Virus record (IMG/VR): IMGVR_UViG_2778261540_000002
Source: a virus
Taxonomy: Duplodnaviria; Heunggongvirae; Uroviricota; Caudoviricetes
DNA: 9,576 bases
Reading direction: 5' to 3' (one strand)
Notes under the pieces: model-generated
What the model was told of the DNA's origin: nothing
The model's input: only the letters and a program-made list of their open reading frames with translations
Database searches by the model: none
Shown here: positions 1-8,178 of the stretch, piece after piece
Layout of the letters: every line of letters begins with the position of its first letter
Position numbering within the stretch: the first letter of the stretch is position 1
Position numbers and translations under genes: made by a program

Positions 1-3000
1 TGACGGTGTTTTCCGCGTTACCAGCAGCGTTAACGGTGATGGTGTGTCCATGTGAACCAATCGCAACGGAGTGCGTATGAGCACCAATACCGACAGTATG
101 CGCGTGTGCACCTGCAGATGCTGCTGTGCCGGACAGTGAATGGCTATGATTACCATCTGTACTGGTATTCGCTAACCACCCCGTAGACATACCTACTGAG
201 CCTTGTACACCCCAGGTATTTTGACCTGAGCTTGTATAACCATATTGATAAGTATCTTTAAAAACACTGGGGTTAAATCGACGGCCATCTCTATGGCTGT
301 GATTACCAGCTGCATTCGTGCTGCCACTTAAACTATGGGTATGCGCACCAGTGTTATTCGTGGATTTAGTGCCGTAATCAAACGACGATGTGGTTTTCGT
401 CCCCAAATCCGTACTGGATGCGCTGGCGCTGTGGGTGTGCGATTTAATGCCGTCCTGTTCCTGAGACAATACGGCCCGACCACTGGCAGGTTTGCCCTTA
501 ATCGTCCAGCCACGCATATCAGGGATCACGCCTGACGGATAAGCCGCTGCAAGTTTCGGGTATGCAGATTTGTCAAAAGCCTGCCCCTGCATCAGGGCAT
601 AGCCAGACGGAACGGTATCTGATGGCCACGGGATTGGTGCGCCGACTGGGTAGCTTTCTGGTGGAAGATTTTTCGAGGTATAAACTTCTGCCCAGTCTTC
701 CTCAAAACCATAACCGTCTCTTGAAGAACGGTAGAACAGACCACCATTTCTGTAATGCGCCTTCATCTGCAAGGTCCGGCAACTTCCGACTCCGGTATAG
801 AAGTTAACCAGAATATAGCTGTCGCCAGAGCGGGTGACATTATAAGCGCCTGATTCGGCATTCCAGGGAACGCCACCATCCGCATCGGCATATGTATCCG
901 TTGCCCTTCTGGCAAAAGCAGCCACATGCGCGGCGGTTAAAGTAATATCTTTGGAACCATCAAACTCAACACCAGAAACCCGTCTTGGCGTTTGCAGCTT
1001 TGTTGCTGTTAATGCATTACCGTTCAGACTTGCGGACAGTTTGGTTCCAATAACCAGTTCGCCGGTTGCGTTATCAATAGCAAACGGTCTTAATGTATTC
1101 CAGCCACCATAAACATCACCTTGATTGGTAAGCAGCAGGTAAGTTTTAGCGCCATCATTACGCCATAATGCCCCATACTCCCCACCTATCATTCGAATCT
1201 GATTACCACCACACGCTACAATTTCGTCTGTGGCAAAAAGTTTTTTGCACGACAAGTTATCGTTAACGATTAACGAATGAGACTCATAAAAACCACGCCC
1301 ACTCTTAAAATCAAGGATAACGTCCGCCGCGATACATTCAGTCGCCGGATTTGTTGCCCCAAACTTATAGGTCGTATCATTAACAACGAGATCAGCACCA
1401 GGTGCGGATATTGACAGGCCATCTTCGATAAACGCAAAAACAGGGAAAGCAGCGCCATCAACATAGAACACAGAGCGCAAATCATCGCCCTTATTACTCA
1501 TCATTATTGAGTGGATGGCTCGTTCATTGTTTTGATATTGCCAGAACATTCCATAAGCATAACGCCCCCTGTCAGTCCAGCCACCAGGCATAACAAATCC
1601 GTTAAACTCGCAGTTATTCATCGGATCGCCTGCGGTTCGCGTTGCCGTGGTGATAATGACCCTTGATGCCAGTTCGCTTACTGAGCCAGCAGAACGCATA
1701 ACAACAACAGGGTAATATTTTCCAGATGTTGCACCTGCAGGAGCGTTAACCCACACATAACGCATACCACGCTTATCAGCAAAGTCTGTTTTACTGACCG
1801 CGTTAATGTTGTTCAGGAAGCGTCCCTTATCGGGTATATCAGCGCCGTTCTGGTCTTTCTGCAGACGTTTCTCTGCATTGTCATAGGCTGATTTTACTGC
1901 CTTTGGCGTTGCCGCCAGCGTTTCAGACGTACTGTTGGTCGCACTGCTGAGCTGTACTATCCCCTTTTTCGTCGTACTTGCATCCTCAAGCGCCACGGCG
2001 GATGCAATATCCTCTGCCCGTTTTGCCGCTGTCTCGGCGCGCGTTGCCGCGGATTCCGCCGTACTTTTGCTCTGTGCTGCCGCCGTCGCACTGCCAGCTG
2101 CCTCTGTCGCCTTCGTGGATGCTGTCGTGGCGCTGCCCTTCGCTGCGGAAGCAGACCTCGCTGCTGCGCTGGCCTGTTCAGTGGCTTCGCCAGCCTTCGT
2201 TGTGGCTGTTGAAGCAGACGATGCGGCACTTTCTGCCGATTTTCCGGCGGCGGTGGCACTGGCTGAGGCCTGCCCGGCACTTGTTGACGCGGCACTGGCA
2301 GACGACGCAGCCGCTGTTGTTGAGCCTGCCGCAGCCGAGGCGCTCTGTCCCGCTGCCGTTTCAGAAGACCTGGCGTTTGTCTCAGACGTCTTTGCCGCCT
2401 TCGCGGAATTGCCTGCCGCCGTTGCCGAGGAAGCGGCACTACTGGCGCTTGATGATGCGTTCGTTTCTGATGATTTCGCTGCCTCTTTTGAGGCCGCCGC
2501 ATCCCGGGCTGAGGTGGCTGCTTCTGACGCCTTCGTGGTCGCGGCGGATGCAGAAGTGGCTGCTGATTGTTGTGACGCTGCCGCATTCGTTTCTGACGTT
2601 TTCGCCGCAGCGGCACTGGTAGCTGCCGCGCTTTTTGAGGACTCTGCAGCAGCAGCACTTTTCGATGCTTCACTGGCCTTTGTTGATGCCGTTCCTGCGC
2701 TGGAAGATGCTGACTGAGCCGACGACGCGGCCTGTCCGGCTGACGTGCTGGCTGCGCGTGCTGAGCCTGCAGCATCAGTCGCATGGGTTGCCGCCTCACG
2801 GGCTGATGTGCCGGCATCGCTGGCTGACTTCTTCGCGGCTGCCGTGTTCTGTGCCACCGCGGACGCGTTACGCGCCACCTCTTCCACCATCAGTTCAAAA
2901 CGGCGCAGTGCCTCAGGACGGGCATCATCCTCCGTCATGGCACCGAGAAAATCATTCAGCGTACCGGGTCGGGAATCTTCATACACGGTGATGGTCCCGG

Positions 3001-3214
3001 CATGTGACGGCGGGAATCCCTCCACCAACAGAATAACGCTGTACTGCCCGTACTCAACGTCCATGCTGTAACGCCCGGCTTCATCCGGATTTTCTGAGGC
3101 CAGCGTGTTCACCACCACCGTGGTGCTGTTACGTTTTGCTTTCAGCTGGATTGTGCAGTTCTGTACCGGTTTTCCTGTGCCGTCTTTCAGTACACCTGAA
3201 ATCTTTACTGCCAT
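1..3214 (-). CDS. stf: Side tail fibre protein, StfR/lambda Stf-like; 3' end truncated by the window edge (about 1071 codons in window, stop codon lies beyond position 1)
   Basis: ATG at 3214-3212 preceded by GGGGTG. My translation begins [81 protein letters not shown], the conserved lambda Stf N-terminal domain. Spot translations at 1801-1920 ([39 protein letters not shown]), 1441-1500 ([22 protein letters not shown]), 601-720 ([34 protein letters not shown]) and 1-360 (HxH-rich end ...[19 protein letters not shown]) stay in one frame. The ORF track lists no complete minus-strand ORF in this frame below 3214, consistent with one open frame running off the edge. Confidence 0.9.
1930..2870 (-). 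repeat. Low-complexity Ala/Ser/Thr-rich coding repeats forming the fibre shaft (motifs such as [30 protein letters not shown]), GC-rich
   Basis: Direct translation of the stf frame. At DNA level, near-repeats are visible, e.g. gtctcagacgtctttgccgcc (about 2380), gtttctgatgatttcgctgcc (about 2462) and gtttctgacgttttcgccgcagc (about 2590). This region produces the long Ala-rich and Arg/Gln/Pro-rich alternate-frame ORFs in the track. Boundaries are approximate. Confidence 0.6.
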
Positions 3215-3223
3215 ATTCACCCC

Positions 3224-3252
3224 ACAAAAAAGCCCGCCTGAACCGGCGGGCT
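3224..3252 (-). terminator. Putative rho-independent terminator downstream of lom: 8-bp GC-rich stem, 6-nt loop, then a run of 6 U on the minus-strand transcript
   Basis: Plus strand 3231-3238 agcccgcc and 3245-3252 ggcgggct are perfect reverse complements with loop tgaacc; an A-run at 3226-3231 on plus is the U-tract on minus. It sits between the lom stop (3279-3281) and the stf start (3214). Confidence 0.6.
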
Positions 3253-3278
3253 GTCATAACACTGTGTTACCTGGCTAA

Positions 3279-3878
3279 TCAGAATTTATAACCGACACCC
3301 ACGATGAAACCGTCAGTGCGCCAGTCACCACTGCCGGAGCCTTCATAAGCAATATCAATGGCCACGGATTCGGTCGGGTTAAACTGCACGCCAGCCCCCC
3401 ACGCCAGAGACGTGTTGCTGTGGCGACCGTCATCACTTCCGGTCAGCACATCGTGCTTTTTCCCCTTGTTGTCAGTTACGCGAAGATAATCCCCGGAGAA
3501 AGTCGACACACGGCTGTAAGCTACACCCGCCATCGCATACGCGCTGAACCATTCATTCACGCGCACAGACGGCCCCGCCATTACGCTGAACCAGCGGTTA
3601 CGAACGGAATCTTCATGCCAGCGGGTATCGCTGTAACGGGTCAGCTGGCGATTCTTGTCTCCTGCATAGCTGAATGACGTCACCAGCCCCAGTGTGTCCG
3701 TAAACTCATAACGGTATTTCACGTTAATCCCGTTCAGATCATCACTGCCGGGGACGTTCGTCGAGGCATGAAGATACCCCGCGCTCAGCGTGGACTGATG
3801 TTCAGACGCCCATGCAGGCGCACCGGATACGGCCAGACAAATGGCTGCGGACAAAATTGCTGCACAAACTTTACGCAT
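3279..3878 (-). CDS. lom: Outer-membrane beta-barrel protein of the Ail/Lom/PagC/OmpX family (Lom homologue), 199 aa, with N-terminal signal peptide
   Basis: ORF with ATG at 3878-3876 preceded by AGAGG. N-terminus MRKVCAAILSAAICLAVSGAPAWA is a signal peptide with an AxA cleavage site. C-terminus ...IAYEGSGSGDWRTDGFIVGVGYKF ends in an aromatic residue typical of outer-membrane barrels and matches my recollection of the lambda Lom C-terminus. Position immediately downstream of J is as in lambda. Confidence 0.9.
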   Translation of the reverse strand: MRKVCAAILSAAICLAVSGAPAWASEHQSTLSAGYLHASTNVPGSDDLNGINVKYRYEFTDTLGLVTSFSYAGDKNRQLTRYSDTRWHEDSVRNRWFSVMAGPSVRVNEWFSAYAMAGVAYSRVSTFSGDYLRVTDNKGKKHDVLTGSDDGRHSNTSLAWGAGVQFNPTESVAIDIAYEGSGSGDWRTDGFIVGVGYKF

Positions 3879-3900
3879 AATTACCTCTCGCTTTTCTGCA

Positions 3901-3930
3901 ATAAAAAAGGCGTCATTCCTGACGCCCTTT
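3901..3930 (-). terminator. Putative rho-independent terminator after J (tJ-like): 7-bp stem ggcgtca/tgacgcc, 4-nt loop, then UUUUUU on the minus-strand transcript
   Basis: Plus 3909-3915 ggcgtca and 3920-3926 tgacgcc are reverse complements with loop ttcc; A-run 3903-3908 on plus is the U-tract on minus. Located in the 70-bp gap between the J stop (3949) and the lom start (3878). Confidence 0.65.
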
Positions 3931-3948
3931 ATTGGGGTTATAAATATT

Positions 3949-6900
3949 TCAACGAATACTGATGCCGGAAGCGGCTTTTTTGGTCACAATCACCGTACAG
4001 TCGGTGATATTGCCTGCCCCCTGATTGCCTTTCTGGAAAATCTTAAACTCCAGAGTGACGCTTCCCCTGCCACTCGGCATATCAATAACTGCACTGTAAC
4101 TACCGGGAATGGCCCCTTTAGTTTCTCTGGATGCGATTAATACGCCGTTTTTGCGAACTTCAAAACCATAACCCGTGTATCGCGTGCCTCCTGGGTTATT
4201 TCCGCTCCCCGGATCGTCATACGCTATACCGTTAAAAATAATGGGCGGAATAATAATCTGGCGGTCAAAGTTATGATCATCGCTGATGGTGACTGTAACC
4301 GTACCGTTTGGTGTTTCCGTGTTACCCCACGTACCGACTTTTTTCGGGAAGGCTTTTGATACAGCTTTAACGAAATCTCCTCTGACCTGGGTCGCCTCCA
4401 GCATGCCCTTAATCGTACAGTTCTGGTTAATCGTGACATTGTTGAGCGTTCCTGAGTTCGCATTCACACTGCCACTGATATCCGCATTTTTCGCCGTCAG
4501 TCTCCCGTCTGATGTCAGGGAAAATGCCGGAGGATTACCGCCGCTGGTAATGGTGGGGGCCGTCAGGCGTTTCAGGAACACTTCATTCATGAATATCTGA
4601 TCGCCCTGACCAACAAACATCGGCTTTGTGTTGCCATTCGCAGGATTAATCATCGCAATCCTGTCTGCTGCCAGCAGCACCTGACTCTGCATGCCGTCAG
4701 GGGTGTTCTCAATACCGGCACCGATACCCGCAATATAAAGGCGTCCGTCCTGCATCTGCTGCAGCTTCACTGCCCACATGCTGTTCAGGTTATTATTTGT
4801 ATCAACCTGAACCTTCTGTATCTGCTGGATCGCTGCACTCTGGTCTTCCAGTTTCTTATTGACGGTCTGTGTTATTTCATTGCTGACATCCGTTATGGAC
4901 GTCCTGATTTCAGTCAGGTCAGGCGCAAGCTGACCGTTATCAATCTGCGTCCACAGCTCCTGAGCCAGATGGGTTTTCCCTATCTCGCCTTTGAAAAAAT
5001 CCAGATAGCCTGATGCATCATCACTCGGCTGACCGACAGCCTCCACGAATGCCGATTTGCCAACGGTGTTCACACTGCGAACGTAAAAATAATAATCATG
5101 GCCCGGTTTGATATTGATACTGGCGGCTATCCAGTACAGTGCCGTACCAAGATAACGCGCGCTGGTTTCAACCTGCCTGATATCCGCAATCCGTTTTTCC
5201 GAGAACCAGAACTCAAACTGTACCGTCGGGTCATAAACCGCAAGATGCGGCGTGGCGGTTATCTGAAAATAGCCCGGCGTCAGCTCAATCCGCGACGGCG
5301 CTGCCGGTGCGGCAATCCGGAACGATACCGACGCCGGATCGCCCTGCTGCCCCCACGCATTTACTGCCCGGACTGTCAGCCTGTAGTTCCCCAGAGCCAG
5401 TTGTGTGAAGCGGTAAGTGGTTTCCGTCGTCCGGGCCGTGCTGACCAGCCGCTCACGGCCGTCATCCGCTGCCACGGTCAGGCGAAGCAGGAAGCTCACG
5501 CCCTTCACCACCTTCGGCGTGTCCCAGCGCGCCAGCACCTGGTATTCCCCGCTGTCTGCGGTGACTTCTGCGGTCAGGTGCTGCACCGCTGGCGGCGTGA
5601 CACCATTTACCGTGCCGCTCTGGTCGCCGTCAAAGTGCGCCCCGTTATCCACGATGGCCTCTTTTTCCGGTACATGCTGCACGGCGGTGATGGCATACGT
5701 GCCGTCGTCGTTCTCACGGATACTCACGCAGCGGAACAGGCGCTGGCGCAACGTCGGCAGCTTCAGCCCCCATACGCTGTATTCAGCAACGCCGTCAGGA
5801 ACACGGCTCACTTTCACCTTCACGCCGTCGGTGACGGACTGAACCTCCACGCTGACCGGACTCCCCTGCCCGTCAACCAGGCTTATCAGCGTGGTGCCGG
5901 AAGATGGCAGCGTGATTTCACGGTCGAGCGTCAGCGTCCGGGTCTGGCTGTTTACCGCCAGCACGCGCCCGCCGGTGCGGATACCGGCATAGTCATCATC
6001 GCAGATTTCAATGACATCGCCCGGTACATGGCGAAGCCCTTCGGCACCCACGCTGAAGTCCACGGTCTGCGTTTCCAGCAGTTCTGTTTTAATCAGCCAC
6101 AGCCCGGCGCGGTGTGCCTGCCCCCGGCTGGTACAGCCAAAAGCATCCATCTTCGTGACGTTACGACCGTAACGGGCAATGGCCTGCGTGTCCTCCACAA
6201 GCTCTGTCGCCGTCTCCCAGCCGTTATTCGGGTCAATCCAGTTCACCTCAACGGCATTATGGCGGTCCTTCAGGGCGCTGAAGCTGTAGCGGAACGGCGC
6301 ACCATCATCCGGCATCACCACATTACTGCGGTTATAGGTCCACACCTTATCCGACGGTCGGTCCTGCACGAACGTCAGCGTCTGCCCGTTCCATACCGGC
6401 ATACAGCGCATCGCAGAGCAGAAATCACTGAGCACATCCCACGCCTTGCGCTGTGTGGTCAGGTACGCATTACAGGTGATGCGCGGCTCCGTGCCGCCAA
6501 AACCGTCCGGCACCGACTGATCGCAATGCTGGCCGATGACATACAGCGCCCATTTGTCCACATCCGCCGCACCAAGACGTTTCCCCATGCCGTAGCGCGG
6601 ATGGGTCAGCATATCCCACAGACACCAGGCCATGTTGTTGCTGTATGCTGGCTTAAACGTTCCGTCCCAGATACCGCTGTATTGCCGCGTCTGCGGGTTA
6701 TAGTTCGACGGCACCTGCAGAATGCGCCCGCGCAGATGATAATTACGGCTCACCTGCTGGCTGCCGAACTGCTCCGAATCCACCTGCACGCCGACCAGTG
6801 CCGTGTTCGGGTAGCACTGTTTCACATCGATGATTTCGGTGTATGACGACCAGAGCGTTTTGTTCTGCAGCTGGTCTGTGGTGCTGTCCGGCGTCATCCT

Positions 6901-7506: not shown

Positions 7507-8178
7507 TCAGCGACCAATCACCACAACCTGACCACCGTCCCCTTCGTCTGCCGTGCTGATCTCCTGAGAAACCACGCGAGACCCCACGCGCATTTCCCCG
7601 TACAGAACAGGCAGAACATTGCCCTGGGCAACCATGTTATCCAGTGAGGAGAAATAGGTGTTCTGCTTACCGTTATCCGTTGTCTGTGTACGGGGAGTTC
7701 TGGCTTTCGGTGCCAGCATCTGCGCCACACCACCGAGCACCATACTGGCACCGAGAGAAAACAGGATGCCGGTCATACCACCGGTCCCAATGGCTGCCCC
7801 CCATGCTGCAAGGGTGGCTCCGGCGGTAAAGAATGATCCGGCAATGGCGGCAGCCCCCAGGACAATCTGGAATACGCCACCTGACTTGGCCCCGGCGACT
7901 CTGGGAACAATATGAATCACAGCGCCATCAGGCAGAGTCTCATGTAACTGCGCCGTTAACCCGGACGTGCTGACGTCCCGCCCGGCAATCCGTACCTGAT
8001 ACCAGCCGTCGCTCAGTTTCTGACGAAACGCCGGGAGCTGTGTGGCCAGTGCCCGGATGGCTTCAGCCCCCGTTTTCACACGAAGGTCGATGCGGCGACC
8101 AAATCGTTGTAAATCCCCGTAAAGGCAGATGCGCGCCATGCCCGGTGACGCCAGAGGGAGTGTGTGCGTCGCTGCCAT
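7507..8178 (-). CDS. I: Tail assembly protein I (lambda gpI homologue), 223 aa
   Basis: 223-aa ORF, the same length as lambda I as I recall it. Begins MAATHTLPLASPGMARICLYGDLQRFGRRIDLRV. Contains a long Gly/Ala-rich hydrophobic segment (GGVFQIVLGAAAIAGSFFTAGATLAAWGAAIGTGGMTGILFSLGASMVLGG). Overlaps the 3' end of K by 103 bp in another frame, as in lambda. Confidence 0.9.
   Translation of the reverse strand: MAATHTLPLASPGMARICLYGDLQRFGRRIDLRVKTGAEAIRALATQLPAFRQKLSDGWYQVRIAGRDVSTSGLTAQLHETLPDGAVIHIVPRVAGAKSGGVFQIVLGAAAIAGSFFTAGATLAAWGAAIGTGGMTGILFSLGASMVLGGVAQMLAPKARTPRTQTTDNGKQNTYFSSLDNMVAQGNVLPVLYGEMRVGSRVVSQEISTADEGDGGQVVVIGR

Follow-up and report, generated by a model that had tools for sequence, protein, structure and literature searches.

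We propose that lom, in this lambda-like phage DNA, belongs to a cargo cassette seated at the terminator between the tail genes J and stf, and that the two hairpins now flanking lom lie inside the late operon, where they would be read through with the help of Q during lytic growth and would stop transcription in lysogens. We put the probability of this reading at roughly 0.78. It is built on the analysis of a 9576-nt stretch of DNA (hereafter, the window) and on 160 IMG/VR loci collected with the Lom of the window and lambda Lom as queries, together with representative phage records. As background, Q-modified polymerase that sets out from the late promoter of lambda passes terminators as it transcribes the late genes; both the Q gene and the late promoter fall outside the window.

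The lom cassette and both flanking terminators are ordinary and already known in public phage genomes. The analysis carries little weight as a discovery because lom has been under study as a cargo gene of lambda-like phages since 1979, the terminators are already annotated, and the cassette has matches in most complete E. coli genomes (4709 of 5426, ~87%; median 2 copies, maximum 14). What is new here is the independence of the upstream terminator from lom, together with the negative result of the promoter search.

Gene layout of the window

The window corresponds to the tail-gene end of a lambda-like (pro)phage, and all its long genes lie on the minus strand, matching lambda tail genes. More specifically, L (9571-8825), K (8819-8076) and I (8178-7507) each match a lambda tail gene and are followed by J (7446-3949), the tail tip/host-specificity gene of 1165 aa, which was assigned using Pfam (domains PF13550, PF24421, PF24801, PF24489, PF09327 and PF12421) and the PDB (E = 0 to lambda J). 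Then come lom (3279..3878; 199 aa) and stf (1..3214), the side tail fibre gene, which is open for 1071 codons up to the window edge and was identified from its translation and from phage annotations; in the best phage matches stf is ~147 bases longer than in the window. K and I share 103 nt (8076-8178) in different reading frames, as they do in lambda.

The Stf protein contains an Ala/Ser/Thr-rich low-complexity part (about residues 110-420). Long ORFs on both strands of the corresponding DNA (1900-2850) are out-of-frame artefacts of this part: an Ala-rich ORF of 260 aa on the plus strand (1935-2717) and an Arg/Pro/Gln-rich ORF of 286 aa on the minus strand (1957-2817). No tandem DNA repeat was detected in this part of stf (1900-2850), and an Rfam search of the window returned nothing meaningful.

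The segment running from the J end through lom to the start of stf is 99.9% identical at the DNA level in phages ev243 and PhiR34_1, where the genes are annotated as J, Lom and side tail fibre, and 100% identical in several E. coli chromosomes.

Two terminator-like hairpins flank lom

A hairpin followed by a T-tract is found on each side of lom on the minus strand. Hairpin A (3900..3927, including stem, loop and tail) has a stem that starts 22 nt beyond the J stop codon (3951-3949); the 18-nt spacer 3' of this codon (3931..3948) contains the conserved motif TTATAACCC. On the coding strand the hairpin reads GGGCGUCA-GGAA-UGACGCCU (3927-3908), with G3927-A3920 paired to U3915-U3908 (8 bp) around the loop GGAA (3919-3916), and it is followed by the tail TTTTTTATT (3908-3900). 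From this tail to the lom ATG (3878) runs a 21-nt leader (3879..3899) with the Shine-Dalgarno sequence GAGAGG (3889-3884), which is invariant in 16 of 16 variants. Hairpin B (3226..3252) starts 26 nt beyond the lom stop codon (3281-3279) and reads AGCCCGCC-GGUUCA-GGCGGGCU (3252-3231); a GC-rich stem of 8 bp is formed between A3252-C3245 and G3238-U3231, leaving the 6-nt loop GGUUCA. Its T run (3231-3226) is followed by GTGGGGTGAAT and ends 11 nt ahead of the stf ATG (3214).

Both sites have the sequence features of intrinsic terminators, that is, a short-looped, GC-rich stem of 5-12 bp with a T run immediately behind it on the transcribed strand (T6ATT in A and T6 in B). A loose consensus terminator scan gave 15 hits in the window, with hairpins A and B as the top two. 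A strict scan (seven or more perfect pairs, including five or more G-C, loops of 3-8 and six or more T among the eight bases that follow) returned exactly two sites on both strands of the window, again hairpins A and B. When 300 dinucleotide-preserving shuffles were subjected to the strict scan, a mean of 0.017 sites per strand was obtained and none of the shuffles had two. The initial annotation had placed a hairpin with a U-tract on either side of lom; both are present where it had put them, at a density beyond chance, and the minus-strand terminator prediction that it had proposed as a check ranks them first and yields them as the only strict sites.

Folding energies point the same way. The core stem of hairpin A has an energy of -13.0 kcal/mol (-16.9 including the flanking A/U extension) and reaches -17.6 in its local context (z = -4.5); the core stem of hairpin B has -17.6 kcal/mol and its local context -20.7 (z = -2.1). 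Both hairpins are strong by this measure. Tandem terminators (t'J1-4) were reportedly mapped downstream of J in lambda by Luk and Szybalski. In public records, both sites are annotated as rho-independent terminators in mEp460 (JQ182728) and as terminators in phage 434 (OL657226); no terminators are annotated in the region in the lambda records J02459 and NC_001416. Geometry, energy and annotation, with covariation in addition for hairpin A, support the assignment of both hairpins as putative intrinsic terminators.

On the plus strand (3895-3945), hairpin A is also terminator-like, the stem being followed there by CTTTATTGGG with an A-tract upstream, and the element could therefore act bidirectionally; no plus-strand gene is evident in the window.

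Conservation of the stems and of the T-tracts

Among 16 distinct J-lom spacers associated with this Lom type, the hairpin A stem occurs as GGGCGTC/GACGCC, GGGCACC/GGTGCC and GGGCGCC/GGCGCC, and one apparent recombinant pairs via G-U. Two of the eight pairs have changed on both sides across the 16 variants; 97.7% of cells are paired, versus 31-61% with a slid 3' partner, and the covariation score was reached by none of 500 shuffles. Because the sequences are closely related, this covariation is supportive of, and not conclusive for, a hairpin A structure kept under selection. Hairpin B is nearly invariant, its few substitutions being wobble-compatible only and without full compensation, and its counterpart in lambda is nearly identical.

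The structure after J is also formed by other sequences. At the same site, lambda has CGTCCG-GGAA-CGGGCG followed by TTTTATTAT, which differs in sequence from hairpin A and is again a hairpin with a T-tract; a third Lom type (61% identity to lambda Lom) has GGGCACCT-CAGG-AGGTGCC followed by TTTTTTATT.

Stem conservation of this kind could also be expected if the hairpins were RNA stability or processing elements of the late transcript and not working terminators. The J and lom segments would then be shielded from exonucleases by 3' stem-loops, and a 5' stem-loop for a lom mRNA might be provided by hairpin A. The covariation of the stem is compatible with any RNA-level function, Q-modified polymerase is expected to ignore the hairpins in the only heavily transcribed phase, and phages that have no lom still keep hairpin A between J and stf. 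We nevertheless regard this explanation as improbable, given the conserved runs of six T directly after both stems (extended to the 9-nt TTTTTTATT after A), a hallmark specific to intrinsic terminators which stability would not require. Moreover, the T-tract after hairpin A is invariant across variants whose stems differ. Termination is the function that we favour for both hairpins.

Lom-less relatives retain the hairpin A family

The relation of the hairpins to lom was examined in phages that lack the gene. A search with terminator B and the 5' end of stf identified lom-less relatives whose homology to the query sets in no earlier than the T-tract. In 4A7, PhiR47_2 and Tritos, lom is missing and just one hairpin separates J from stf. 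The junction reads J stop, (A)TTTTATAACCC..., GGGYRCCAGAAATGGYGCC, TTTTTTATT, TGTGGAGTGAATATG(stf), and the flank after J opens with TTTATAACCC.., then continues with the hairpin A family; in Tritos the 22 nt following the J stop are identical to those of the window. The junction is therefore a hybrid, with the left flank of hairpin A and the right flank of hairpin B joined in the T-tract. The hybrid hairpins lie at positions 359-420 of L170 (4A7), 359-420 of L171 (PhiR47_2) and 357-420 of L172 (Tritos).

Since the lom-less junctions keep the hairpin A family, without hairpin B, hairpin A is resident at the J-stf boundary. On this sequence comparison, the lom-specific DNA extends from about 3899 to about 3226 and consists of the leader, lom and hairpin B. 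The cassette is joined at both ends within or beside T-tracts, which suggests that the T-tracts of the terminators have served as joints for the gain or loss of lom. With hairpin A resident, the mobile unit is a leader, a gene and one terminator, and it would offer a clear example of cargo slotted into an antiterminated operon without disturbing that operon. The initial annotation had described lom as a cargo gene bracketed by two terminators: lom is indeed flanked by both and is dispensable, since close relatives have J then stf without it, but the upstream hairpin, being present in lom-less phages, is not part of the cargo.

The position of both hairpins exactly at mosaic boundaries, and the T-tract hybrid at the lom-less junction, would also be expected of functionless sequences, either chance inverted repeats or passive scars of recombination. 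We give this explanation almost no credence. Chance would supply only the 0.017 sites per strand found in the shuffles, compensatory changes keep the pairing, lambda and the third Lom type arrive at the same structure with independent sequences, and freely disrupted stems were not seen in the 150+ loci examined. Resident and cassette-borne terminators remain our preferred description of hairpins A and B, respectively.

In four loci (L130-L132 and L056), hairpin B and stf are replaced by unrelated sequence in the 80 nt after the lom stop. This sequence contains a perfect extended -10 (TGGTATAAT) and is therefore another downstream module, one that probably has a promoter of its own.

Lom protein and its variation

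The lom product scores 407.7 bits with the PF06316 profile (curated cut-off 23; E = 9.9e-123), in a match of residues 1-199 to the complete profile (positions 1-199). Over its whole length it can also be aligned with the structures of OmpX and Ail (E about 1e-18), and it matches the lambda Lom structure (PDB 9wso) with E = 7e-51. The N-terminus, MRKVCAAILSAAICLAVSGAPAWA|SEHQ, has a putative signal peptide ending in ...APAWA|SEHQ, and the C-terminus ends in ...GYKF with an aromatic residue. From these matches, lom is a genuine Ail/Lom gene, and its product is predicted to be the precursor of an 8-stranded outer-membrane beta-barrel; the earlier placement of Lom in the Ail family is thus borne out by both profile and structure alignments. 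PDB 9wso contains a solved full-length lambda Lom of 206 aa (chain C; two chains in the entry), and this structure may bear on the proposed role of Lom in blocking lambda adsorption.

Overall, the Lom of the window is 45% identical to lambda Lom. Strands and loops were assigned from the OmpX alignment, with the OmpX topology taken as our assumption for Lom (a single-sequence AlphaFold model had a pLDDT of 40 and was unusable). Within residues 29-169, identity to lambda Lom is 53% in the inferred strands and turns and 19% in the inferred loops L1-L3 (Fisher p about 8e-5). In residues 172-199, loop 4 among them, 26 of 28 positions are identical to lambda Lom. At the DNA level, identity to lambda is 30-60% over a block made up of the receptor-binding end of J, of hairpin A and of five-sixths of lom from its start; it rises to 90-97% at about position 3375 and keeps this level through hairpin B into stf. 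Because this jump in DNA identity continues into stf, the conserved C-terminus of Lom marks a mosaic recombination junction and does not reflect strand conservation alone. The initial annotation had ascribed the divergent N-terminal part and the conserved C-terminal strand to variable surface loops; the divergence does fall in the inferred loops, but the C-terminus, loop 4 included, is better accounted for by the junction.

Sliding DNA identity places the divergence of J from lambda in its last ~450 nt, the receptor-binding end. More precisely, the C-terminal ~150 codons of J (3949-4400) have 30-60% DNA identity to lambda, and J further upstream 85-95%. In the sampled loci, four J-end types (36-59% protein identity) reassort with four Lom types: the Lom type of the window occurs with three J-end types, and a single J type was seen together with three Lom types. 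If Lom masked the cognate receptor, its type should be linked to the receptor-binding type of J; the types reassort, and strict pairing of Lom with its own receptor-binding domain is therefore not supported.

Search for a lom promoter

Promoters were sought with the sigma-70 consensus, and weak or non-canonical promoters may escape such scans. A general promoter scan gave no site near lom, and no consensus match was found in the lom leader, in the post-J spacer or at a conserved position of the J 3' end. A position-weight scan of the 400 nt upstream of lom gave a maximum of 7.4 bits, which 36 other sites in the window attain as well; the top hits fall within J, 250-370 nt ahead of lom. The initial annotation likewise saw no sigma-70 promoter between hairpin A and the lom start, in an interval that it gave as 24 nt, counted from the end of the T run; our scans agree.

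Several candidates were considered and set aside. In eight representatives of the observed combinations of J-end and Lom types, coinciding hits occur about 250-260 nt upstream of the lom ATG. At the codon level, this coincidence at ~255 nt goes back to a ..KNG..I(F/Y).. motif that is conserved in J, and the hit is missing in several types; the same hit is found equally in the lom-less Tritos and was rejected. In the post-J spacer, ATAACCC is invariant in the 16 variants, and TATAAC is present in 15 of the 16 (CATAAC in L069). As a -10 element, TATAAC (3942-3937) has no matching -35, and a TG extension is present in some variants only; a transcript starting there would run directly into hairpin A. 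TTTATT, taken from the T-tract, lacks the essential A at position 2 of a -10 element.

A lysogenic lom promoter could thus not be identified from sequence in any Lom type examined, and its absence from the scans bears on the debate about whether Lom acts for the lysogen (adhesion) or for the phage (blocking unproductive late adsorption). Published data on lambda lom are divided. Transcription or expression of lom in lysogens is reported by several sources (PMC1151598; PMC7067206; PMC12366544); one microarray study did not detect it there and describes the lom promoter as little known (PMC2147009). Lambda Lom expression climbs strongly late in infection (PMC12366544 and PMC9836094, both citing Liu et al. 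2013). When over-expressed, lambda Lom blocks lambda-vir, and Lom has been proposed to protect kin during lysis (PMC12366544).

These observations leave room for an alternative in which lom is made only on the Q-antiterminated late transcript and the hairpins silence lom and stf in lysogens. Lom would then have a lytic role, for instance keeping new phage off infected cells, and would not act in lysogenic conversion. Such a role would agree with the late rise of Lom, the block to lambda-vir and the proposed kin protection, as well as with the lysogens in which lom went undetected. In the window, the 5' end of the cassette is a 21-nt leader straight after a terminator, and the scans gave no promoter within the cassette or close to it. 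We consider the alternative unlikely, however, as several sources report lambda lom transcription or expression in lysogens and consensus scans can miss weak or non-canonical promoters.

A further arrangement, which we think doubtful at best, would have lom without a promoter of its own and hairpin A as a leaky gate, with low amounts of Lom in lysogens arising from upstream starts that read partly through it. The start may be the TATAAC after the J stop or a site inside the J 3' end. The lom mRNA would in that case begin with hairpin A or close to it, and the hairpin may also stabilise this mRNA.

Proposed transcription of lom and stf

Under the reading that we prefer, a cassette inside an antiterminated late operon, Q-modified polymerase from the late promoter would ignore hairpins A and B in lytic growth, and J, lom and stf would be co-transcribed. 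In lysogens, unmodified polymerase would stop at both hairpins. Hairpin A would keep stray transcription of the tail genes out of lom and stf, and hairpin B would end any lom transcript ahead of stf. Because the 11 nt after the T run of hairpin B leave no room for a promoter, stf can be transcribed only through both hairpins. Lom itself would be exported and inserted into the outer membrane of the host, with surface loops that vary among phage lineages. It has been proposed that long operons curb spurious transcription by means of internal terminators together with processive antitermination (PMC8955417). How lom is transcribed had been left open by the initial annotation; for lytic growth the late transcript is the expected answer, and for lysogens the literature describes the promoter as little characterised (PMC2147009).

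Comparison with known systems

Close relatives of the window are mEp460, ev243 and PhiR34_1, with 96.9-99.9% DNA identity from the J end through lom to the stf start (97% for mEp460), and phage 434, whose Lom is 97% identical to that of the window at the protein level. All four differ from the window by point differences only and by nothing structural. Lambda (lom, NP_040601) has the same gene order, with lom at the orthologous position J-lom-stf. A hairpin and T-tract follow J there too (CGTCCGGGAACGGGCG TTTTATTAT), although the sequence of hairpin A differs. Lambda Lom has 206 aa versus 199 aa here, the divergence being mostly in the inferred loops L1-L3, and the stf region of the lambda reference record is split into two ORFs, orf-401 and orf-314, whereas the frame is open for 1071 codons here.

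The cassette can also be compared with morons, and lambda Lom is included among the moron-encoded proteins listed in a review (Cumby et al. 2012; PMC3594210). In the definition of Juhala et al. (2000), as quoted in that review, a moron is additional DNA separating two genes which are neighbours in related phages. Further features of morons are its own terminator, its own promoter for expression from the repressed prophage, a differing GC content, and a product that benefits or modifies the host. The GC difference is described as a general tendency and not a strict criterion (PMC3594210). The lom cassette is extra DNA between J and stf and has its own terminator (hairpin B). It differs from morons in that lom has no GC anomaly relative to its neighbours (0.552, versus 0.564 for J and 0.533 for stf), and hence no compositional sign of recent import, and that the upstream terminator is resident and not part of the insert; a promoter of its own was not recognised in the sigma-70 scans, which a weak or non-sigma-70 promoter may escape. 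Because the GC feature of morons is not seen, we use the term lom cargo cassette, orthologous to that of lambda, and keep 'moron' for the usage of the literature.

At the protein level, Lom has a putative signal peptide and a C-terminal aromatic residue, as expected of small outer-membrane barrels such as the Ail/OmpX/PagC family (PF06316, PF13505); compared with OmpX, the inferred loops L2 and L3 are longer in the Lom of the window. Prophage homologues of Ail/Lom are also present in Stx phages of the 933W/VT2-Sakai type and in Gifsy-2, where each is followed by a hairpin and T-tract. These homologues differ from lom in having another genomic position, with an AT-rich stretch of 90-100 nt upstream and no upstream terminator (the AT-rich regions lie at 243-334 of L085 and 439-538 of L087 for the VT2-Sakai/933W-type and Gifsy-2 homologues). 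Since the 933W/VT2-Sakai and Gifsy-2 types have only the downstream terminator, they fit the view that, of the two hairpins, only the downstream one belongs to lom.
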